Assembly: GCA_012343875.1 (NCBI GenBank)
Contig: GCA_012343875.1_3924.1
Origin: a phage
Length of the DNA stretch: 64,000 nt
Reading direction: 5' to 3' (one strand)
Under the pieces are notes generated by a model, which saw only the letters and a program-made list of their open reading frames with translations, was not told the DNA's origin and searched no databases. Both the position numbers and the translations under genes were made by a program. Within the stretch, counting starts at the first letter, position 1; every line of letters starts with the position of its first letter. Shown here piece after piece: positions 33,019 to 55,355 of the stretch.

Positions 33019-33441
33019 TTATTTCTCTCTCAGTTGGTTAAGTTTCTTTCTAGAACATTTTAAGTTTTCAGATGAAGAAAAGTCAAGTGTCTTTTCAGAA
33101 CGTGGATAATAGTGCCTATCCCAAGAAGTTTCAACATCGTTAATCAGTGACGCTAGATTACACAGGTCTGTACCACTTTGCAACCTCTTTTTAAGAGAAT
33201 CTAGTAAAGCAACTGTGTCTTTAGCTTTACGTCTCGCTGTAGCAACATCTTTCATATGCTCAAATACAGAGCATTTTAAGTCATCTTCATAGTTTTCAGA
33301 CAACTCTATTTCATGTTGTATATCAACCATTCTCCTGTGATGGTGAGCATATTCCCGTTGAGCAGCAATGTCAAGTTCTTCCAACTTCTGCAAAGCTCTA
33401 ACAAAGTCAGCTATGTCTGGGTGAACAAACATTTTCTGCAT
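33019..33441 (-). CDS. hypothetical protein (140 aa), first gene of the leftward block
   Basis: ORF adjacent to the divergent control region. Confidence 0.4.
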   Translation of the reverse strand: MQKMFVHPDIADFVRALQKLEELDIAAQREYAHHHRRMVDIQHEIELSENYEDDLKCSVFEHMKDVATARRKAKDTVALLDSLKKRLQSGTDLCNLASLINDVETSWDRHYYPRSEKTLDFSSSENLKCSRKKLNQLREK

Positions 33442-33699
33442 GTAAGCCTCTTTTAAGTAACTATTAAGTTTTAATCTTTTATCTTAACGTATTCTATACG
33501 TTATACTTTAAAGCTTTTTAAAAGCTATTAAATAATCTTTTAAGAGTTTTAAAGTATCTGTATAGTTAAACTGTTAAGTAACCTTTTAAGTAAAAAACCC
33601 ACTTCGCAAAGATTAACACCTTGTCAAGTGCATTGTCAACTTGCTTTTTATAATTTTTTGCAGTAATGTATGAGGTTAATGGTTTTAGAGGGAGTAAAA
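33442..33699. promoter_or_regulatory. AT-rich divergent control region with repeated CTTTTAAG motifs
   Basis: Separates the leftward block from the rightward polymerase block; CTTTTAAG at three sites, near-palindrome AGCTTTTTAAAAGCT, direct repeat TTGTCAA x2. Confidence 0.5.
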
Positions 33700-36399
33700 A
33701 TGGAAAACGTAGATTTTAAAAACTTACATTTAGTTGGTGATACAGAAACTGATGGTTTACTCCTTGAGTTCACTAAAGTGCACGTAATGGCTTTCGCAGA
33801 CTATAAATCTGACGATGAAGAGCCACCTGTATGGGTCTTTACAGATGAACCTATTCTCGGTCACAAGTACACCAAGTACATCAAGGGTGGCTTACGTGAA
33901 GGTATTGAGTTTGCGTTAAAGGCAAAACGTCTTTGCATCCATAACGGTCTCGGTTATGACTGGTGGGTTTTCAATCACATTGCACCTGATTTATGGAACT
34001 TTGATAACCCAAAGTGTAAACCGTGGAGTAATTTCTTTCAGGATTCTCTTATCCAGTCTCGTGTTCAGTGGATGGATAGACCAACTCCAAAGGGTTATAA
34101 AGGTGCTCATGGTTTGGCTGCATGGGGTGCTCGTGTTGGTGTTCGTAAACCAGAGATTGAACATTGGGGTGTGTGGAATGCAGAAATCTTCACTCGTGTT
34201 GTAGAAGATATCCGTATTAACGCCAAAACTAAACGGGCACTTGATAATGAGTATCTCAAGCTTAAGAAGTGTGGCATAGATACTTATGAAACCTACATGC
34301 GAGCTAAAGAAACATCTTTCTGGATGAGCCAGCAAGCTATCAATGGTTGGAAAGCTGATAAAGAGCTTATGGAGTTCCATGTAAAGGAACTTGACAAGTT
34401 GACTAATGAGCTTGCTTCAGAGGTTGAACCACATCTACCTCCAACTATTAAGACCAAAGGTAAAGTAACTGGTGAAGAGTTTGCAAAGGCTTGGAATGAG
34501 TATGTTGAAACATTTGGTCATGCAGATGGGTTGAAGAGAATCACCAAGTATCCTAAGACGAAGTACCGTCAACAGGTGCGTAACGGTGAGATGCAGACAT
34601 ACGAAATCAAACCATTTGGTAAGCCAACTACAAAGATTTTTAACATTGAAAAGAGAAATTGCTATACACCAACCAACTCTGTAACTGGTGAAGAGTACAA
34701 GGAAGGCTTTGTAGCAATGAAGGATGCTCGTGCAATTTGCAATGAGTTGAATGCAAAGATTGGTAAGAAATGCAAAGACTGGAAGCCAGTGAAAACAGTC
34801 AAAACTGTGAAGTACTATAACAGTCACGTTGTTAACCACTTTGAACTTGAGTCAAGTCGCTACACAGGTTTGATTGATGCACCATATACACCAATTGATT
34901 TTGAAGTTTCTCGTATGACTCAGGTAGCAGTTGTTAAAGACTACTTGAAATCAGTTGGTTGGATTCCAGATGACTGGAACTACAAGAAAGACTCAGACGG
35001 TCGCCCTGTCAAAGTTTGTCGTTTCAAAGACAATAAAAAGATGATTACAAAACATCCTAAGTGGCAGGAGATGGTAGAACGTTGTGGTTTAAGTTATGTT
35101 GAACATGAAGGTGTTCAGTACATTGAGCATAACTGGTCTGTGAAGAAGTACACAGATTTGCTTGAGCCTTGCTTAATCCGTACTTCACCAAAACTTACTG
35201 AATCATCTTATGATACGATTGAAGGTGAGCTTGGACAGAAGATTGCTAAGTACTATACTTTGATGCACCGACGCAGAACTATTGAGAACTCAAAGGATGA
35301 TGAAAAAGGTTGGTTGAACCAGATTCGTCCTGATGGTCGCCTTAGTGCTGGTGCAATGGTGTTTGGTACTTCAACTGGACGTATGACACAATATGGTATT
35401 GTAAACGTACCGTCTGGTGCTGCTGTCTATGGGGAACCAATGAGGGCAGTGTGGATTTGTGAGGAAGGTACTAACGTTGTCTCTGTAGATATGAACTCAG
35501 CCCAGCTAGTTCTTCTTTGTAACTTTATGGGTGATAAAGACTTCACCAAAGCGGTAACGCAAGGTAAAGAAGAGATTGAGTTTATTCGTCAAGAAGATGG
35601 ACGCTATTACTGCAAACATTTTGATGAGTACCTAAACCCAGAAATTGATAAGTACCTTCGCTATGACTCTGAGAATGACCTGTACGTTGTCTATTCAGGG
35701 ACTGATGCACATACACTGAACAGTATCTACTTTAGCTTGAACGATGAGCAGGACATCTTGACTTGTCGAGCTACTCAGGATGAGAATCTTCTTCATGAGA
35801 TTAGCAAAGGTCGTAAGAAAGCTAAGAATGGTATCTATGCACTACTGTTTGGTGCAGGTGATGAGAAGTTTGCTAAGACGATTAAAGCTGCAACTACTCA
35901 GGAAGGTGCACTGACTAAACAAACTTACTTTATTCGTTTGCCTAAAATTAAGAAGCTACTAGATGACTTGGAAGCTGACTACAAAGCAACTAAAAAGGCA
36001 CTTGAAGAGGTGTTTGGTAAGACTGCTGCAATCTCTAAAGGGGGTTTTGTAAAGGTTGCTGGAGCTTGGTTGTGGTGTAAATCTCCACACAAACTGTTGA
36101 ACTACCTTTTGATGGGTTCAGAGGCCCAGATTCAAAATGAGGCAATTAACCTTGCTTGTCGTCGCATGATTGACGAAGGGTTGATGAAGCTAAATGGGCG
36201 TAAACCAGCTATAGGTGCTCGTTTGCTCTGCGCATATCACGATGAAACAAGTTGGGAATGCCCAGAAAGTATGACGGCAGAAGTGAAAGCAGTTACTGAC
36301 TGGTATTATGGACAAGCTTCTAAAAACTTAGGTCTTAAGAAAGAAACACTTGTTACAGGTACTGGTAAGGTTGGTAAAAGCTGGCTTGAAGTACACTAA
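33700..36399 (+). CDS. DNA polymerase, family A (Pol I-like) with 3'-5' exonuclease domain
   Basis: Exo motif LVGDTETDG; polymerase motifs RKKAKNGIYALLFGAG and CAYHDE; start moved to ATG 33700 (RBS GAGGGAG). Confidence 0.85.
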   Translation: MENVDFKNLHLVGDTETDGLLLEFTKVHVMAFADYKSDDEEPPVWVFTDEPILGHKYTKYIKGGLREGIEFALKAKRLCIHNGLGYDWWVFNHIAPDLWNFDNPKCKPWSNFFQDSLIQSRVQWMDRPTPKGYKGAHGLAAWGARVGVRKPEIEHWGVWNAEIFTRVVEDIRINAKTKRALDNEYLKLKKCGIDTYETYMRAKETSFWMSQQAINGWKADKELMEFHVKELDKLTNELASEVEPHLPPTIKTKGKVTGEEFAKAWNEYVETFGHADGLKRITKYPKTKYRQQVRNGEMQTYEIKPFGKPTTKIFNIEKRNCYTPTNSVTGEEYKEGFVAMKDARAICNELNAKIGKKCKDWKPVKTVKTVKYYNSHVVNHFELESSRYTGLIDAPYTPIDFEVSRMTQVAVVKDYLKSVGWIPDDWNYKKDSDGRPVKVCRFKDNKKMITKHPKWQEMVERCGLSYVEHEGVQYIEHNWSVKKYTDLLEPCLIRTSPKLTESSYDTIEGELGQKIAKYYTLMHRRRTIENSKDDEKGWLNQIRPDGRLSAGAMVFGTSTGRMTQYGIVNVPSGAAVYGEPMRAVWICEEGTNVVSVDMNSAQLVLLCNFMGDKDFTKAVTQGKEEIEFIRQEDGRYYCKHFDEYLNPEIDKYLRYDSENDLYVVYSGTDAHTLNSIYFSLNDEQDILTCRATQDENLLHEISKGRKKAKNGIYALLFGAGDEKFAKTIKAATTQEGALTKQTYFIRLPKIKKLLDDLEADYKATKKALEEVFGKTAAISKGGFVKVAGAWLWCKSPHKLLNYLLMGSEAQIQNEAINLACRRMIDEGLMKLNGRKPAIGARLLCAYHDETSWECPESMTAEVKAVTDWYYGQASKNLGLKKETLVTGTGKVGKSWLEVH

Positions 36400-36460
36400 T
36401 TAGTATTGACAAGGTGCTCATGGAAGAGTACCTTATACTGTATCTTATATAGGAGGGCTT

Positions 36461-36670
36461 ATGAGCCATCGTGGAAGAACCCATGCAGCGATGATGAAAG
36501 GTGCTTCAAAGGAGACTATCAAAAATCGTAAGCAGAAGTTGTTTGAGAGAATGAACAGGTTAATTGACAATTCATCTCTTTCAGGTTCTGAGAAGGTTTT
36601 CTTGAAAGGTAATCTGAAAAGCATTGCACAAGAACTTATTGACATTGAGTATTGGAGACACCAAAAATGA
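36461..36670 (+). CDS. hypothetical small protein (69 aa)
   Basis: RBS AGGAGGG upstream of ATG. Confidence 0.4.
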   Translation: MSHRGRTHAAMMKGASKETIKNRKQKLFERMNRLIDNSSLSGSEKVFLKGNLKSIAQELIDIEYWRHQK

Positions 36671-36879
36671 CACTTGCAGACGTTATCCAACAACTTCATG
36701 ATAACTGCTATACTCCAGAGTTGATTCAGGAGATGCTTATTGTAGTGATGCCTAGTAAGTTCGTAAAAGGTTTTAATAATGACTCTTTAAGGTCTGCGCA
36801 TATCCTTATTGTTGATGGTAAGATTGCAAGGGACCGTACTGGAGTCCTTAAGGGCGAACGTATTAATATTGACCTCTGA
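36667..36879 (+). CDS. hypothetical small protein
   Basis: Start taken at internal ATG 36667 overlapping the upstream stop. Confidence 0.35.
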   Translation: MTLADVIQQLHDNCYTPELIQEMLIVVMPSKFVKGFNNDSLRSAHILIVDGKIARDRTGVLKGERINIDL

Positions 36880-36897
36880 ATATTGGAGATACCGAAA

Positions 36898-37053
36898 ATG
36901 AAACGCAAAGTTAAGTTTTTTAATTTATATGGAAGAGTTGGTAAAGGTTTTGACTGGCAACTGTTACGCTCAAATGTTAAAAGCAATGAATTAGCACCAC
37001 TTATCATTCATTATCGACGTACATACAGAGAAGTAGAGCATCGTGAACAGTAA
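36898..37053 (+). CDS. hypothetical small basic protein (51 aa), not in ORF track
   Basis: RBS GGAGAT 8 nt upstream; MKRKVKFFNLYGRVGKGFDWQLLRSNVKSNELAPLIIHYRRTYREVEHREQ. Confidence 0.3.
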   Translation: MKRKVKFFNLYGRVGKGFDWQLLRSNVKSNELAPLIIHYRRTYREVEHREQ

Positions 37054-37066
37054 ACAGGGGTGTATT

Positions 37067-37303
37067 ATGTGGAAATCAGTAATTGCGCTTGGTGTTATTT
37101 TTCTATCTGGCTGCAACCCTTCTTATGAAGATAAAAATGCTTCTTACAGCCTCCCACCAGAGATGCAAGATTGCAGAGTATACAAGTTACATGGTGATGC
37201 TATAAGCAGAGATATTGTTGTTGTCAGATGTCCAAACTCCCAAACAACAACATCTTATAGCTATGGCAAAAATGGTCAATCACACACTACGGTTATTGAG
37301 TGA
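37067..37303 (+). CDS. small lipoprotein (about 78 aa), candidate superinfection-exclusion factor
   Basis: Signal peptide with lipobox FLSGC; two additional Cys in the mature part. Confidence 0.45.
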   Translation: MWKSVIALGVIFLSGCNPSYEDKNASYSLPPEMQDCRVYKLHGDAISRDIVVVRCPNSQTTTSYSYGKNGQSHTTVIE

Positions 37304-37313
37304 GGGTTTCACG

Positions 37314-37520
37314 ATGGAAGTCCTAGTAAACTATATCTATTGTTATGATGTTGTTCACTCTACTACAACGGTAGCTCAACGTAACCCAATCGTCCCACGA
37401 GAAGGTGAGTTGGTTCGCATTGATGGTTGGACTTACACTGTGGAAAGCATCATTCATAAGTTTGATGTTGCTGGTGATGTTCAAGTTATTGACGTAGAAA
37501 TTGGTGGTAAGAGAAAATGA
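37314..37520 (+). CDS. hypothetical small protein
   Basis: Start taken at ATG 37314 (RBS GAGGG). Confidence 0.35.
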   Translation: MEVLVNYIYCYDVVHSTTTVAQRNPIVPREGELVRIDGWTYTVESIIHKFDVAGDVQVIDVEIGGKRK

Positions 37521-37676
37521 AATCTAAGCAAACAATGGCAGATGCAATCTTCACAGTACACAGTTTCGAAAGGTTGCGCATCAAAGATGCAAAGGATACC
37601 CCAAAATGCGTTGTACATTTTATTAAAAGGCGTAGTAACATGTCCTATATGAAATCTGACAAAGGTGAGAGTACAA

Positions 37677-37895
37677 ATGGATAAAGATAACAAATATAAT
37701 AACGCCGTCCTTACAGAAGATGGTGAGCTTGAAACATTCATTCTTCGTGTTGATGGTAAACTATTCCGGTGTCGTTGTGGGTCAAACTGTTTTCATAAAC
37801 CAGATAAAAATGACTTAGAGCTTTACGCATGTAATGCTTGCAATACTTGGTATCACTCAGAGGTTAAAAATGACAATTCTATACAAACAAAATAA
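37677..37895 (+). CDS. small zinc-ribbon protein
   Basis: CRCGSNC .. CNACN cysteine pairs. Confidence 0.4.
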   Translation: MDKDNKYNNAVLTEDGELETFILRVDGKLFRCRCGSNCFHKPDKNDLELYACNACNTWYHSEVKNDNSIQTK

Positions 37896-38970
37896 AGATG
37901 GCTCTTTTAACGTCTGGTCATGCGTTGCTGTAGGTAACAAAGTTATTACAACCTACGGTAAAGAAAATGGCAAGATGATGTTTGAAGAGTATACAGCAGA
38001 ACCTAAAAACATCGGTAAAAAGAATGAGCGTAACGCTGAACAGCAAGCTCTCTTTGAAGTTGCTGCTAAGTACAAAAAGCAAGTTGACCGCAAAGGTTAT
38101 GCTTACACAAAAGAGTCTGCACAGAATACTGAAAAGGCAGGTGTACAGCTTGCTCATGATGCTGCAAAGGTTAGCCACGCAAAGTATTTGAAGTTCCCTG
38201 CTGATGCTCAACCAAAACTTGATGGTGTACGTTGCAGAATTTCAAGAGATGCTGATTCAGTTAGTTTCACGGCTTATTCTCGTGAGAATACTGTTTACAA
38301 CGTTCCAGCAGAACTAATCCCAGATTTGCTTTTGCTGCTTAAATTACACCCGCAAGTTGAAGACTTTGATGGCGAGATTTATGCTCATGGTTGGGACTTA
38401 GAAGATATTGTATCTATGATTAAGAATGCTGACAATCCAGACCGTCACCTTCTTAAATTCTACTGGTATGATATCTGTGACAATTCAAAATCTTGGCCTG
38501 AGCGTCGTGAAGTTATTGATAACTCACCTATTGTTGAGCTTGGGGATGCCTGTAGAGTTGTTCCTGTACAGACTATCCGTGTAAATTCTTGGGAAGAGTT
38601 TGATGAAGCTCATGATAAGTGGGTTGAAGCTAAGTTTGAAGGTGCAATGTACCGTTCAATCTCTGAAGACTCATTCTATGAGTGTTGTCACCGTTCATAC
38701 TTCTTGATTAAGCACAAGAAGATGCACACTGAAGAGTTTAAAGTGACTGGTGTAAAGACTGATAAACGTGGTCATGGTAAGTTCGTTGTAGAGACTCTTC
38801 CTAACGTCTTTGTAGATGTCTCATGGAAGACTACTCATGAGAAGAAACAGTATCTTGCTGAGCATCCTGATGAGTTTATCGGGAAACCTTTAACGGTACA
38901 GTTCCAGAAGATGACTCGTAAGGGGTCTTTGCAGTTCCCTGTTGGGCTAGTTATACGAGATTATGAATAA
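37870..38970 (+). CDS. ATP-dependent DNA ligase
   Basis: Adenylation motif I PKLDGVRC (KxDG); start at ATG 37870 with RBS GAGGT. Confidence 0.8.
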   Translation: MTILYKQNKDGSFNVWSCVAVGNKVITTYGKENGKMMFEEYTAEPKNIGKKNERNAEQQALFEVAAKYKKQVDRKGYAYTKESAQNTEKAGVQLAHDAAKVSHAKYLKFPADAQPKLDGVRCRISRDADSVSFTAYSRENTVYNVPAELIPDLLLLLKLHPQVEDFDGEIYAHGWDLEDIVSMIKNADNPDRHLLKFYWYDICDNSKSWPERREVIDNSPIVELGDACRVVPVQTIRVNSWEEFDEAHDKWVEAKFEGAMYRSISEDSFYECCHRSYFLIKHKKMHTEEFKVTGVKTDKRGHGKFVVETLPNVFVDVSWKTTHEKKQYLAEHPDEFIGKPLTVQFQKMTRKGSLQFPVGLVIRDYE

Positions 38971-38976
38971 AAGTTG

Positions 38977-39004
38977 TTGACATAGAAAATTTGGTGAGTA
39001 TACT
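38977..39004 (+). promoter_or_regulatory. strong sigma70-like promoter
   Basis: TTGACA (38977-38982) - 16 nt - TATACT (38999-39004). Confidence 0.6.
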
Positions 39005-39080
39005 GAGCAGCATAAACCAACGGGTACTCACCAGCATCACTTAAGAGTCTTTTAAAAGGGTTTTTAAGTGATGTGTAGCT

Positions 39081-39155
39081 CGGTCAGGTATGGTGCGGTG
39101 GTGTAAGGTGGTGTCAGGTGTAGTATGGTGCTGTGATGTGAGGTATGGGTAGTTA
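39081..39155 (+). repeat. GT-rich block of degenerate tandem 10-bp repeats (block 1)
   Basis: Decamers gtgtaaggtg / gtgtcaggtg / tagtatggtg / ctgtgatgtg / aggtatgggt; almost no C on the plus strand. Confidence 0.6.
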
Positions 39156-39220
39156 GTCTCAGCTACATTAAAATGAGACTTACCTTTTTAAAAGGTCTTT
39201 AAGAGGGTCTTTTAATAAGG

Positions 39221-39290
39221 TATTGTATGGTGTAGTTTGGTTAGGTATGGTTGGGTGTGGTAAGGTAGGGTATGGAAGGATGGCAGTAGC
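39221..39290 (+). repeat. GT-rich block of degenerate tandem 10-bp repeats (block 2)
   Basis: Decamers tattgtatgg / tgtagtttgg / ttaggtatgg / ttgggtgtgg / taaggtaggg / tatggaagga. Confidence 0.6.
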
Positions 39291-39327
39291 CTTATAAAAA
39301 ATCTGCCAAATAAGCTATAAAATCTGT

Positions 39328-39356
39328 TGACAAGTCAGGTGTTATAGCTTATTTTT
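39328..39356 (+). promoter_or_regulatory. sigma70-like promoter upstream of the 39400 gene
   Basis: TTGACA (39328-39333) - 17 nt - TATTTT. Confidence 0.45.
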
Positions 39357-39399
39357 ATACTCAATGTAATACAAAATTTAATATAACTTTGAGGTCATT

Positions 39400-39783
39400 A
39401 TGAAAAAGGTTTTATTAGCTGCTGCAATGGTTATGGCAATGAACTTACCAGTCAATGCAACAGAACTTCCAAATGTGGACTTATCAGGTGTTCCAGAAGA
39501 TACTTGCCAGATTGTAAAAGGTGTTGCGCTATCTAAAGGTGAGTTACTTAAACCAATCTCTGAAGAATCTTTGACAGAGATGACTGATAAGGTAACTGAC
39601 TATCAGTATCGTGTTCTTGCAGAGTATTTCCTGCAATCTGCAAACATTAAAGAGAAACACCATGACGATATTGATGTACAGGCGATGCTCAACCACCGTA
39701 TCCAGTTTAAAGAAGATTTGATGCAAAAAGCTATGTATGGTGTTGAGTATTTCTTAGAAAACAGAAGCTGCACAGGTATTTGA
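39400..39783 (+). CDS. secreted protein of unknown function (127 aa)
   Basis: Signal peptide MKKVLLAAAMVMAMNLPVNA. Confidence 0.45.
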   Translation: MKKVLLAAAMVMAMNLPVNATELPNVDLSGVPEDTCQIVKGVALSKGELLKPISEESLTEMTDKVTDYQYRVLAEYFLQSANIKEKHHDDIDVQAMLNHRIQFKEDLMQKAMYGVEYFLENRSCTGI

Positions 39784-39784
39784 T

Positions 39785-39997
39785 ATGGCTCTTAAAAAGT
39801 TACATCCCAGAAGCGGTTATGGTAAGATAGTCGATGATACAGACGGCTTTACAGTATTTACAGTCATCTGTCAAGATGATTCACAGATTGAAAAGGCTCT
39901 TGATGATTATCTTAACGATGAACGTGAAAAGGTTAGGGCTACAAACATAGATTCATTAATTGACACTTCACGTAAACGGAAGAAGAAAGATGAATGA
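39785..39997 (+). CDS. hypothetical small protein (70 aa)
   Basis: Co-directional ORF. Confidence 0.35.
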   Translation: MALKKLHPRSGYGKIVDDTDGFTVFTVICQDDSQIEKALDDYLNDEREKVRATNIDSLIDTSRKRKKKDE

Positions 39998-40289
39998 AGT
40001 TTTTGACCCTTATGCTCCACAAGATGATTGGGAGGCTGACAGAGAGGCTGAAATGGAGAGTTATGTTTGTCCAATGGATGTAGACGAAATGAGAGATTTC
40101 GTTGCACACCGTTTTAAGAAAGAGATTAAATCCAGAGGTCTTTCTCAAGAGCAAGTTGCTAAAATTTGTGGTATCTCTCAGGCTCGCGTATCCAACATAA
40201 TCCACCTCACTGGTAATGTCTCCCTTGAGTATATGTTGGAAGTATGTGAAAAATTTGGTGTTAATTTCAATTTAAGGCTGGCAGATTAA
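39990..40289 (+). CDS. helix-turn-helix DNA-binding protein, candidate transcription regulator
   Basis: LSQEQVAKICGISQARVSNI resembles an HTH recognition unit; start taken at ATG 39990. Confidence 0.4.
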   Translation: MNEVFDPYAPQDDWEADREAEMESYVCPMDVDEMRDFVAHRFKKEIKSRGLSQEQVAKICGISQARVSNIIHLTGNVSLEYMLEVCEKFGVNFNLRLAD

Positions 40290-40290
40290 T

Positions 40291-40650
40291 ATGAAACGTG
40301 AAAACATTATCCACTCTGAAAACTTCGCATTAGGCTTTTATGGTGTACCTACTCACCTTGAAAAGTATTATGGTGTGAAGATTCTCTCCAATCTCATTAT
40401 GGCTTACAAAGATGGTAAGATTAAGCATACTGAGAAGAAACGTGTCATGGGCTATATGGCTGTAGGTTCAGCAATCTCGAACATTAAGCTGGAAACAACT
40501 AGCAGTCAGATTGTGAAAGACCACTTCATCAAAGAGCTTTACCAGAATCTTGATGGTGTAGATGTTCAGGCTGTTTGGCTGGATGTTGACGGTCATAACT
40601 ACACGAGTTTTGTTTTCAAAAACGACGACATTAAGTGTCTGTTCCCATAA
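40291..40650 (+). CDS. hypothetical protein (119 aa)
   Basis: Co-directional ORF. Confidence 0.4.
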   Translation: MKRENIIHSENFALGFYGVPTHLEKYYGVKILSNLIMAYKDGKIKHTEKKRVMGYMAVGSAISNIKLETTSSQIVKDHFIKELYQNLDGVDVQAVWLDVDGHNYTSFVFKNDDIKCLFP

Positions 40651-40663
40651 TAGGTGATTAACT

Positions 40664-41179
40664 ATGATTGATATCTACTTACAAGATGCTCATGCAGATT
40701 TCCTTAAAACGATGCTTAAAAAGTTTATGGCTTCACAGGGTGATAATGAAGCATCTTTTAAAATAGTCACATGTGGCGACGAAGCTGGTTTTGTTGAGAT
40801 TGAACATGAAGATACTGGAAAGACTGTTTGTAAGTTACCTGATAGCATGTTCTCTAACACGTTCTTAACAAAGACTAGTATAAATGTTAAGCTTGTGCCT
40901 CAGATTGAAACATACTCTGGCACAGATTATCCTAAAGGTTTTAAGTCATTGATGAAGTACTTCTTAGATGACTTTGTGGGTAATCTTCTGAGGGAGGTAA
41001 AAGAAAGTCGTACAGTGTTAACTGTAGAGAACATGGGAGGAACTATAAAGGTTACTTCTGACTGTTTTGTGATGAGCCTCTTCGACTTCGTTCCTAAGAA
41101 CTTTGATGGTATTCTGGATGAAGAAGATGACTGTGTAGACTTTATATTGGTTCTTGAACCAGTTTTTGAGGTTAAATAA
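40664..41179 (+). CDS. hypothetical protein (171 aa)
   Basis: Co-directional ORF. Confidence 0.4.
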   Translation: MIDIYLQDAHADFLKTMLKKFMASQGDNEASFKIVTCGDEAGFVEIEHEDTGKTVCKLPDSMFSNTFLTKTSINVKLVPQIETYSGTDYPKGFKSLMKYFLDDFVGNLLREVKESRTVLTVENMGGTIKVTSDCFVMSLFDFVPKNFDGILDEEDDCVDFILVLEPVFEVK

Positions 41180-41440
41180 ATGAAAATTGAATACTGCTAT
41201 GAGTCTGATGGAACACCTATCCGATGTCCACATTGTGGATGTACAGACTTGCAAGGTGAGGTAAGTGAAATAGTCAACGGTCATATCGCTGAAGAGAGTA
41301 CAAGGTGTACAGGGTGTAATGAAATCATTGCTTTCTGGGCTTATGGTTCATACCAACCTACACCACACTTAATCTACCATAGCAATAAAGCTGTGAAGAA
41401 TGTTATCAACTGGTTCATTAAGAAAGGATTTACAAAATGA
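41180..41440 (+). CDS. small zinc-ribbon protein (86 aa)
   Basis: CPHCGC .. CTGCN. Confidence 0.4.
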   Translation: MKIEYCYESDGTPIRCPHCGCTDLQGEVSEIVNGHIAEESTRCTGCNEIIAFWAYGSYQPTPHLIYHSNKAVKNVINWFIKKGFTK

Positions 41441-41982
41441 TTAAATTAATCTTTGCAAGTGGTGAAAATGGGGAGTTTGGTACTCCAACTGGTATGCCGT
41501 GGCCTCGACATAAACAGGATATGAAAGAGTTTAAGAGAATCACTAAAAACAACTTAGTAGTGATGGGTAATGAGACTTTCAAGACTCTGGGTAGTAAACC
41601 TTTACCAGAACGTGCAAACCTCATCTTAACAAATTCTGTACCATACTTAGGCATAGACTTTGGCAAAGATGAGGTAATGTATGCTAAGGCCAGCAAAGAA
41701 TCCTTTGGAGCATTTTTGAAGTATCTCGATAGCTCTATTGATGAAGATGTCTTTGTAATTGGTGGTGCAGGTGTCCTTGTCAATGCTTTACCATATGCTG
41801 GTGTAGTTTTCCATACAGTTTTCCATAAAGTTACTGAAGAGGCCACTGTGTATTTACCTTTTGAAAACTTCTTTGAGAAGCTGTATGATAACAGTGTATT
41901 TACAAAGGTACAGTCAAAACCATCAGAGGATGGTAAAGCAACCTTTGAAATTTATGTTCCACAAGTAAAAGGACACTTTTGA
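41437..41982 (+). CDS. frd: dihydrofolate reductase
   Basis: N-terminal MIKLIFASGENGEFGTPTGMPW typical of DHFR; immediately upstream of thymidylate synthase. Confidence 0.75.
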   Translation: MIKLIFASGENGEFGTPTGMPWPRHKQDMKEFKRITKNNLVVMGNETFKTLGSKPLPERANLILTNSVPYLGIDFGKDEVMYAKASKESFGAFLKYLDSSIDEDVFVIGGAGVLVNALPYAGVVFHTVFHKVTEEATVYLPFENFFEKLYDNSVFTKVQSKPSEDGKATFEIYVPQVKGHF

Positions 41983-41983
41983 T

Positions 41984-42883
41984 ATGTCACAAGCAGATAC
42001 AAGTTACAAAGATATCCTGAACCATGTTTTATCAGTTGGTGAACTGCGTACTACACGAACTGGAGATGTTATCTCTGCATTTGCTCCACCTAAGTTTCGC
42101 TTTGATATGAGGACTGGTTTCCCACTCTTAACATCTAAACAGGTGTTTACACGGCAAGTTATTGGGGAAGCTTTATGGTTCCTGAATGGTGAGAATAAGC
42201 TGGGTGAACTCCGTTACCGTACTTGGGGTGAAAATGATGGGGAACGCTGGACTATCTGGTCAGATGATTTTAAACGCTGGTTAAGCTCTAATTATTCTTC
42301 TGAACAAGATTGGTTAGATGATGCAGGTGGGAGAATCTATGGGGTTCAGTGGAGAAACTTTGAAGGTCATAATGGTTGTGTTGTAGACCAACTAGAGACC
42401 TTAGTAACAAAGATGAAGGGTGATATCACAGACCGTTACATGCTTGTTAATGCTTGGAATGCAGCAGATATTGCAGCAAACTCAATGGCTTTAGCACCTT
42501 GTCATGTTCTGTTTCAGATTTATATCACTAATGAAGGTGAAGTGGATTTGCAATGGTATCAGCGTTCTGTAGACACCTTTTTAGGACTTCCATTTAACAT
42601 TGCGTCTTACGGCTTCATCTTAGAAGTTCTTTGTAAGATGACTGGATACACTCCACGGTACTTGATAGGTGTCTTTGGGGATACTCAGATTTATCAGAAC
42701 CATATGAAGCAGGTTTATGAACTGATGAACAATGAAGAGTTCCATGCACCAACTTTTGAGATTGGTCTACCACTTAATACTTTAAGTGACCTGAAACATC
42801 TTACTGCAAGTGATTTTATTGGTGGTATTAACAACTACCAACATGCAGGGAAGATTGAAGCACCTCTGTCAGTAGGTAAGTAA
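41984..42883 (+). CDS. thyA: thymidylate synthase
   Basis: Active-site APCH and QRSVDTFLGLPFNIASYGF blocks. Confidence 0.85.
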   Translation: MSQADTSYKDILNHVLSVGELRTTRTGDVISAFAPPKFRFDMRTGFPLLTSKQVFTRQVIGEALWFLNGENKLGELRYRTWGENDGERWTIWSDDFKRWLSSNYSSEQDWLDDAGGRIYGVQWRNFEGHNGCVVDQLETLVTKMKGDITDRYMLVNAWNAADIAANSMALAPCHVLFQIYITNEGEVDLQWYQRSVDTFLGLPFNIASYGFILEVLCKMTGYTPRYLIGVFGDTQIYQNHMKQVYELMNNEEFHAPTFEIGLPLNTLSDLKHLTASDFIGGINNYQHAGKIEAPLSVGK

Positions 42884-42885
42884 AA

Positions 42886-42925
42886 ACAAAAAAGGCTCCT
42901 TTTTACGGGAGCCTTAAAATTTTAT
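42886..42925. terminator. bidirectional intrinsic terminator between convergent blocks
   Basis: AAGGCTCC-tttttacg-GGAGCCTT hairpin flanked by A-run upstream and T-rich run downstream. Confidence 0.6.

Positions 42926-49970: not shown

Positions 49971-55354
<5,384 letters not shown>

Positions 55355-55355
<1 letters not shown>

Follow-up and report, generated by a model that had tools for sequence, protein, structure and literature searches.

VIPR, a phage system that resembles CRISPR, was first described in 2026 in two bioRxiv preprints from one laboratory (10.64898/2026.04.26.720920; 10.64898/2026.04.26.720927), and consists of Vipr, a protein of about 20 kDa with a RAMP fold, an accessory protein, Vap, and guide RNAs called vrRNAs. 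In each vrRNA, 9-16 YNNGG repeats precede a conserved tail of about 40 nt, which in the clade of phage SUSP1 folds into a pseudoknot, and the SUSP1 vrRNAs were detected by small-RNA sequencing (10.64898/2026.04.26.720920). Cryo-electron microscopy places one Vipr protomer on each pentamer of the RNA, forming a helical filament (10.64898/2026.04.26.720927). According to the SUSP1 preprints, the GGY triplet flips outward and leaves the NN dinucleotides to base-pair with double-stranded DNA, with one target base, mostly the codon wobble position, skipped per unit; the resulting complex silences transcription, and the vrRNAs of this clade are mostly aimed at a phage satellite residing in Escherichia coli chromosomes. 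Here we describe a 429-bp spacer (positions 38971-39399) in a 64,000-nt stretch of phage DNA (GenBank assembly GCA_012343875.1, contig GCA_012343875.1_3924.1), hereafter the window, which comes from a Felix O1-like myovirus (Felixounavirus). The spacer separates an ATP-dependent DNA ligase gene from a 127-codon open reading frame (ORF). We conclude with high confidence that two vrRNA genes belonging to the type II VIPR systems of the SUSP1 clade lie in it, without an effector at this location, and that their guides are aimed at the E. coli satellite.

Pentamer arrays and tails in the ligase spacer

An earlier note, made from the sequence alone, had described two GT-rich blocks in the spacer, the first of them nearly devoid of C; both are C-poor, with C at 6 of 80 nt and 0 of 65 nt, respectively. 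It had also taken them for arrays of decamers with a 10-bp period and had proposed autocorrelation as a check. The peaks came at lags of 5, 10, 15 and 20 nt, and not at 10 alone (0.49-0.67, vs 0.33-0.34 +/- 0.05-0.06 in shuffles); the fundamental period is 5, and the decamer gives way to the pentamer YNNGG, i.e. GGY plus two further bases. Tandem Repeats Finder reported only weak arrays of 10 and 15 nt. The pattern GGTNNGGTNNGGTNNGGT (GGTNN x4), with at most one mismatch, was matched 10 times, always within 39082-39276, vs 0.05 matches expected from shuffles, and no similar repeats were found elsewhere in the window. Thus, the repeats are real and highly non-random. The two blocks, each together with its upstream hairpin motif, represent copies of one module placed 135-160 bp apart, and are designated below as the repeat tracts of vrRNA-A and vrRNA-B (Table 1). 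In register, they comprise 17 units in A, two of them derived from the hairpin, and 12 units in B, in each case including a constant last unit; the guide cores span 14 units in A and 10-11 units in B. The guide dinucleotides read GT TC CA AT GC GG AA GG CA GT AT GC GA GA in vrRNA-A, and AA AT AT GT TT TA AT TG GT AA AG in vrRNA-B.

Each tract is followed by a tail with the fold of an H-type pseudoknot, and the two tails differ in sequence. We collected 101 tails from this and related loci, which collapse into 27 unique 44-nt sequences forming four or five classes. The 21 distinct 38-nt tails can be aligned without gaps, and in this alignment the two-helix pseudoknot has 89.7% of its cells paired, vs 25-43% when the 3′ partner is slid; moreover, compensatory changes on both sides were seen in 9 of the 12 tail base pairs. 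The window carries the two commonest variants, of which the vrRNA-B tail is the most common (27/101) and is identical to that of SUSP1 vrRNA4. What the earlier note had regarded as a palindrome-rich core between the blocks resolves into the pseudoknot tail of the first RNA and the hairpin of the adjoining linker.

A 551-nt query centered on the spacer matched 259 phage records, mostly Felixounaviruses of Escherichia, Salmonella and Shigella. The closest match to the window in a search of the phage collection was phage dune (96.6%), which carries vipr, encodes a ligase protein identical to that of the window, and has an identical vrRNA-A tract. For comparison we assembled the locus from 29 IMG/VR contigs, fetched via the ligase protein, and from several GenBank records. 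The distance between the ligase and the next conserved gene varies from 273 nt to 2.1 kb, and the first promoter (P1), both hairpins, the sequences that follow the blocks and the second promoter (P2) are near-identical across the relatives. Comparison with related phages had been named as a check in the earlier note. In 31 related loci with near-identical flanks, the GGY triplet recurs at five-base intervals, the dinucleotides that separate successive triplets are scrambled, and arrays differ in their unit counts. There are 1-6 arrays per genome, of 4-21 units each, all of them on the gene strand and only at the ligase locus; the 100 arrays found in 30 loci have a mean of 13 units and keep GG in 70-79% of them. 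The element is absent from an Erwinia Kolesnikvirus relative, in which the ligase gene abuts the next gene. In Erwinia phage Rouille (L033 2529-3797), the ligase is immediately preceded by a tRNA nucleotidyltransferase gene and is followed by neither a spacer nor arrays.

Most of the longer loci contain two genes between the arrays, coding for proteins of 200 and 146 aa, which in PHROGs are of unknown function and in Pfam have no match. The larger of the two proteins shares 96.5% identity with its SUSP1 counterpart in the published VIPR locus, and both vipr and vap are present between arrays in 19 of 30 related loci. In SUSP1 itself (L015), which belongs to the same subfamily as the window phage, one array lies upstream and three lie downstream of the two genes, in agreement with the publication, and its P1, hairpins, tail types and P2 resemble those of the window almost base for base. 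By homology with SUSP1, P1 would transcribe both vrRNAs of the window, each RNA consisting of YNNGG pentamers followed by a pseudoknot tail of about 38 nt. The earlier note had offered, as an alternative to a DNA-level role, transcription of a structured non-coding RNA from the first promoter; this was essentially right, as P1, the hairpins, the tails and P2 are those of SUSP1, from which the vrRNAs were sequenced.

The association of such arrays with Vipr extends beyond Felixounaviruses. When IMG/VR was scanned blindly for seven perfect GGTNN units, over 100 stretches came up, some of them microsatellites; many others were complex arrays on unrelated contigs, 10-35 units long with NN that varied, and frequently more than one lay in tandem. 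In at least 35 of the unrelated array loci a Vipr homologue was found beside the arrays. Up to eight GGTNN arrays occur on such unrelated contigs (L036 6114-6498; L153 3396-3843; L043, 189 kb; L068, L096, L111 and L137). Some of them abut directly, with 10-14 units and a shared end motif, GGTAAGGCTA or GGCAG, and others have 33-35 units; many of these contigs have a distant Vipr homologue adjoining. They probably represent other VIPR types, such as the staggered arrays of the published description.

Guide matches in the E. coli satellite

The satellite was located by searching E. coli genomes with the baseplate gene of the window (52330-53127, minus strand). A gene annotated as “phage baseplate protein” and 90-95% identical to it in DNA sequence is present in 474 of 5,426 complete E. 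coli genomes, where it forms part of a chromosomal island of about 11 kb containing baseplate, tape-measure, recombinase and methyltransferase genes and small ORFs, inserted at yciI-tonB, wrbA, yecD/DUF72 or mdtG. The satellite carries homologues of the tape-measure gene (53127-55355, minus strand) and the baseplate gene of the window. Among the satellite copies at loci L154-L159 and L163-L168, several are interrupted by insertion sequence (IS) elements.

Guides were read as (xNN)n, according to the published code with a 1-nt skip, and compared with 11 E. coli satellites; following the VIPR criteria, an NN match of at least 80% under the 1-nt skip was counted as a target, with no self-target at or above 80% in the source genome. 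Guide A agrees with the tape-measure gene at 27/28 positions in three of the satellites, at 26/28 in three more and at 24/28 in one, and the skipped base always falls on the third codon position of that gene; in the remaining four satellites, which have a divergent tape-measure allele, the match drops to 19-20/28. When the order of units was shuffled, none of 2000 shuffles scored above 22, and skip lengths of 0, 2 or 3 yielded only 18-19/28. The exact 26-base gapped pattern of guide A has a single match in IMG/VR (2.9 million viral contigs), and this match is in a provirus of the same satellite family. Guide B matches 18/20 (20/22 with the leading AA unit) over the -10/start region of a satellite TTGACA promoter located upstream of the first gene of the operon, and this match was found in three of the four satellites not covered by guide A; between them, A and B account for 10 of the 11 satellites. 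A score of 18/20 was reached by 4 of 2000 shuffles of guide B, and by none of 120 in a later test. Its exact pattern also has one match in IMG/VR, on an unrelated contig with 33% GC, which is probably due to chance.

Within the window, the best self-match is 20/28 (71%) for guide A, at the homologue of the vrRNA-A target in the phage's own tape-measure gene (Table 1), and 15/20 (75%) for guide B. The own tape-measure site is under the 80% threshold for targeting, hence there is no self-targeting. Overall, the spacer combines the repeat architecture and the pseudoknot tail of vrRNAs with a satellite target at or above 80% for both guides (96% for A and 90% for B) and with the lack of a self-target. 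A Vipr filament assembled on these guides would be expected to repress transcription at the satellite tape-measure site (e.g. L157 9754-9795) in the case of vrRNA-A, and at the operon promoter (L156 5114-5149) in the case of vrRNA-B. One satellite carries a vrRNA of its own (L154 6861-6920, minus strand), with 12 units, a T3-like pseudoknot tail (GGGTGGATTGTCGTAGCCAC...) and no vipr; its guide has no match of at least 80% in the window or in six satellites (L154-L159).

Absence of vipr and vap and rival readings of the locus

Searches of the window with Vipr and Vap by tblastn yielded nothing (best E = 0.65 and 4.8), as did a profile built from 18 diverse Vipr homologues (best E = 0.62, compared with 1e-63 in dune). 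Neither vipr nor vap adjoins the arrays, so that the window contains vrRNA genes rather than a complete VIPR system, and its guides are orphans. In vipr-positive records the gene is always single-copy and located at the ligase locus, and neither the satellites nor the 5,426 E. coli genomes yielded any vipr-vap DNA. Among roughly 260 related GenBank records, Vipr is present in about 118 (~45%), including 77 of the 120 phages from Escherichia, 17 of the 76 or so from Salmonella and 8 of the 23 from Shigella, and more than half of the records have arrays without the genes. The linker between the two vrRNAs is a module of about 40 bp (…CCTTTTTAAAAGGTCTTTAAGAGGGTCTTTTAAT…) that recurs before several arrays, flanks the segment composed of the third array, vipr and vap in locus L020, and is present in three copies in dune. 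Judging from this arrangement, the module is likely to be the site of recombination removing or inserting vipr-vap, and the cassette would most simply have been lost through recombination between the flanking linker modules. The orphan guides would then act only with Vipr supplied in trans, for example by a co-infecting vipr-positive Felixounavirus, and would otherwise be inert.

Several observations weigh against our assignment. Guide A keeps GG in only 9 of its 17 in-register units, counting the two derived from the hairpin and the last unit; this tract is the one that is identical in vipr-positive dune. The guide B match is short, AT-rich and statistically weaker than that of guide A. Promoter use, RNA ends and processing in this phage are extrapolated from SUSP1. 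The genome is about 85-88 kb long and the window spans 64 kb of it; that vipr is also missing from the other part is deduced from relatives, among them Felixounavirus NRG857CP1 (complete, 84,421 bp, 95% identical over 58.8 kb), in which vipr and vap are lacking and the arrays number only two, both at this same locus. GG integrity is 70% in vipr-negative vs 79% in vipr-positive loci, a comparison that is only suggestive because arrays are shared between genomes. Finally, guides without Vipr cannot act in cis, which makes a present-day function conjectural.

A reading of the spacer at the DNA level, as replication-origin iterons, a partition (centromere) site or a protein-wrapping site, would suit its position beside replication genes and between two strong promoters, and the GenBank record of phage XTG1 labels its arrays “direct repeat sequence2 posible binding site of StbAB”; nevertheless, we regard it as extremely unlikely. 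The earlier note had placed the repeats on one face of the helix, as in iteron arrays, centromere-like or protein-wrapping sites, which does not hold with a period of 5 nt and with NN scrambled among relatives that keep GGY. A 5-nt unit with two free positions leaves no fixed sequence for a DNA-binding protein to recognize. Moreover, the arrays occupy one strand only, the tails conserve base pairing and not sequence, the dinucleotides spell satellite sequences, and the Erwinia relatives, with the ligase abutting the next gene, lack the element altogether. GC skew follows the coding strand and bears no origin signature at the spacer: its sign flips exactly at the switches in gene orientation, divergent at ~33.5 kb (33441-33670) and convergent at ~42.9 kb (42883-42922), indicating that the skew of the window tracks the direction of transcription. 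Of these proposals, wrapping fails as a DNA site and survives in altered form, as the binding of one Vipr protomer per pentamer on RNA (10.64898/2026.04.26.720927). Repeat searches for a CRISPR array, with identical repeats of 23-50 bp and unique spacers, gave only the 5-nt periodicity and the module at ~135-160 bp. Repeats that bind host factors, such as a TRAP-like GGU sponge, an antisense Rho rut site, G2-quadruplex arrays or boxA/boxC-like antitermination signals, have hardly any more to recommend them. The 5-nt layout of triplet plus spacer resembles that of TRAP sites, the minus strand of the blocks is C-rich and G-poor, and the linker sequence GGTCTTTAA is one mismatch away from the boxA motif GCTCTTTAA; however, none of these predicts that the spacer dinucleotides would encode satellite genes under a 1-nt skip, or that the arrays would co-occur with Vipr homologues in unrelated phages, and there was no match to an Rfam family at E <= 1 in 37000-41000. 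A tRNA 3′-end (ACC) sponge, Chi-like sites and primase recognition sites were considered as well, and all of these candidates, TRAP, rut, G2-quadruplex and boxA/boxC included, were dropped because the dinucleotides encode the satellite and Vipr homologues lie beside the arrays.

If the spacer indeed holds vrRNA genes, the question is whether they are still in use, and here the evidence is mixed. They may be inert relics, that is, vrRNA genes by descent which became functionless after the loss of vipr-vap, and which owe their persistence only to a recent date of the deletion or to repeated re-seeding through recombination with vipr-positive phages. The absence of Vipr from the window, from the complete relative NRG857CP1 and from E. 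coli genomes is consistent with this, as are the lower GG integrity of vipr-negative loci, the scarcity of vipr in Salmonella phages in comparison with Escherichia phages, and the degenerate state of three vipr-negative loci with a single array (L006, L025 and L031), which lack a significant satellite match. On the other hand, the two promoters, P1 and P2, and the two tails are undamaged and correspond exactly to the majority forms, arrays are retained without the genes in more than half of the related records, and 11 of 17 unique orphan guides have matches not reached by shuffles, vs 41/58 guides of vipr-positive phages. We tentatively suggest, as a possibility of somewhat lesser weight, that orphan vrRNAs are used in trans, being loaded onto, or competing for, the Vipr of a vipr-positive relative during co-infection. 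In that case, guides and effector could be viewed as separately circulating “public goods” or decoys in the phage population, and a guide-only lifestyle would parallel that of satellites with their own vrRNAs. It is improbable that the orphans serve purely as anti-VIPR decoys, which soak up or redirect a competitor's Vipr in the manner of RNA anti-CRISPRs with Cas proteins: a near-consensus promoter followed by GGY tracts and undamaged tails, with no cognate protein, would fit such a role, as would the vrRNA seen in the vipr-less satellite, yet the guides hold specific and well-matched anti-satellite information, for which a mere sponge would have no need.

With regard to the vrRNA assignment itself, members of a guide RNA class first reported in April-June 2026 were picked out here by a reader from raw sequence alone, and the published code was reproduced independently, since a 1-nt skip, and no other length, ties the guides to the E. 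coli satellite. At the population level, it can be added that more than half of Felix O1-like phages hold guide genes without the effector, and that orphan guides match the satellite as well as those of complete systems. The main text of the first preprint (10.64898/2026.04.26.720920) does not discuss phages that lack vipr, and a word search of it found neither “orphan” nor “Felix”. The vrRNA kind has been known since 2026; what this locus adds is modest but genuine, namely a guide-only arrangement, without vipr, in which the guides remain directed at the satellite. Should the orphans work in trans, they would inform on the gain, loss and sharing of VIPR systems. The assignment also bears on the annotation of Felixounavirus genomes for phage therapy and typing, where the region is now either unannotated or labeled “repeat_region”.

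Flanking features and comparison with known systems

Table 1. Positions of the spacer features, the genes on either side of it and the homologous tape-measure site in the window
Feature	Position	Strand	Details
ATP-dependent DNA ligase gene	37834-38970	+	
Promoter P1	38977-39004	+	-35 TTGACA 38977-38982, 16-nt spacer, -10 TATACT 38999-39004; presumed vrRNA promoter
Inverted repeat TGGTGAGTA/TACTCACCA	38992-39000 / 39025-39033	+	Perfect, 9 bp, 24-nt gap
Hairpin CATCACTTAA...TTAAGTGATG (also given as CATCACTTAAGAG...CTTAAGTGATG)	39035-39073	+	5′ of the first repeat tract
vrRNA-A repeat tract	39074-39148	+	14 guide units (39074-39143) and constant last unit TATGG (39144-39148)
vrRNA-A 3′ tail	39147-39184	+	H-type pseudoknot; S1 39149-39152/39163-39166; S2 39155-39161/39174-39180
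Linker hairpin TACCTTTTTAAAAG...CTTTTAATAAGGTA	39181-39222	+	
vrRNA-B repeat tract	39216-39275	+	12 units, the last being constant TATGG (39271-39275)
vrRNA-B 3′ tail	39274-39311	+	Same pseudoknot fold, different sequence; S1 39276-39279/39290-39293; S2 39281-39286/39303-39308
AT-rich 19-bp hairpin followed by T run	39308-39361	+	P2 embedded; conserved in all relatives
127-codon ORF	39400-39783	+	Downstream neighbor of the spacer
Own tape-measure site homologous to the vrRNA-A target	54268-54309	-	20/28 (71%)

The spacer lies inside an island of plus-strand genes (33670-42883) for replication and nucleotide metabolism, the remainder of the window being read from the minus strand. As the earlier note had stated, it has no apparent coding potential, and no ORF of at least 30 aa was found in it. 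Pfam and PHROGs searches with the neighboring ORFs returned a sole match, a helix-turn-helix (HTH) regulator at 39960-40289, which is uninformative. The region is not mentioned in the Felix O1 genome paper (PMC3185647), and the PhageMaP paper on phage Bas63 has nothing on it. In GenBank, the arrays of relatives (humlepung, dune, garuso and fjerdesal) are labeled only as “repeat_region”, and in UAB_Phi87 two small ORFs are annotated across the first array; such annotations, like that of XTG1, look outdated.

Both promoters, which are sigma-70-like, and both hairpins of the earlier note were recovered. P1 scores 11/12 in a consensus scan; in SUSP1, dune and every relative the identical sequence stands immediately before the first vrRNA. 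The left arm of the TGGTGAGTA/TACTCACCA repeat overlaps its -10 element, and the repeat (38992-39033 overall), conserved in SUSP1 and all relatives, could be an operator, e.g. for the HTH protein, or a leader structure. The second hairpin also precedes SUSP1 vrRNA1 and vrRNA4 and the arrays of L020, and its 3′ arm (TTAAG TGATG, 39064-39073) is in register with the pentamers; inspection of relatives and SUSP1 revealed no covariation supporting a hairpin before the arrays. P2 (TTGACA-17-TATTTT, 39327-39355; 10/12 matches) has its -35 (39327-39332) in the loop of the 19-bp hairpin and its -10 at 39350-39355, and is the promoter of the next operon, downstream of the vrRNA genes. The hairpin with its T run is a possible terminator of the vrRNA transcript, and the whole segment looks like a terminator and a promoter that overlap where the vrRNA unit gives way to the downstream operon.

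The linker is highly conserved, and its part at 39192-39215 contains GGTCTTTAA and GGGTCTTTTAA. The former is the boxA-like sequence considered above, and the latter resembles GTCTTTA, the heptamer preferred by CspB; both likenesses are probably coincidental. A second hot spot for insertions among relatives is located between the ligase stop codon and P1: a hydrophobic 48-aa ORF (phrog_22006) is found there in L001, L002 and L020, and an unrelated ORF of about 60 aa in L008, L029 and L015, with neither one present in the window.

Comparison of the locus with known repeat systems shows several partial likenesses. Iterons and parS sites are likewise tandem direct repeats in non-coding regions near replication genes, but iterons are fixed units of 17-22 bp bound as double-stranded DNA, in contrast to the strand-specific 5-nt units with two free positions and an attached RNA pseudoknot seen here. 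The TRAP sites of Bacillus trp leaders consist of 9-11 (G/U)AG triplets with spacers of 2-3 nt, and share with VIPR the combination of a triplet with a 2-nt spacer, the occupancy of each unit by one subunit, and the free sequence of the spacer; in VIPR, however, the spacers carry information by pairing with DNA, the protein forms a RAMP-fold filament and not a ring, and the triplet is GGY. Orphan CRISPR arrays, phage mini-arrays and RNA anti-CRISPRs offer another parallel, being guide genes on a mobile element without an effector, for which action in trans or as a decoy is possible, although orphan CRISPR arrays are built of repeat-spacer units instead of a pentamer code, and in the present case a trans or decoy role is only a candidate. 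The SUSP1 VIPR locus differs from the window in having vipr and vap, and four arrays instead of two. It also differs in the make-up of its guides, since vrRNA-A combines the position of SUSP1 vrRNA1 with the tail type of SUSP1 vrRNA2/3. The two loci share the YNNGG tracts of 9-16 or more units, the pseudoknot tail, P1, the hairpins, the linkers and P2, the slot after the ligase gene and a target in one kind of E. coli satellite, read with a 1-nt skip that falls on the wobble position.

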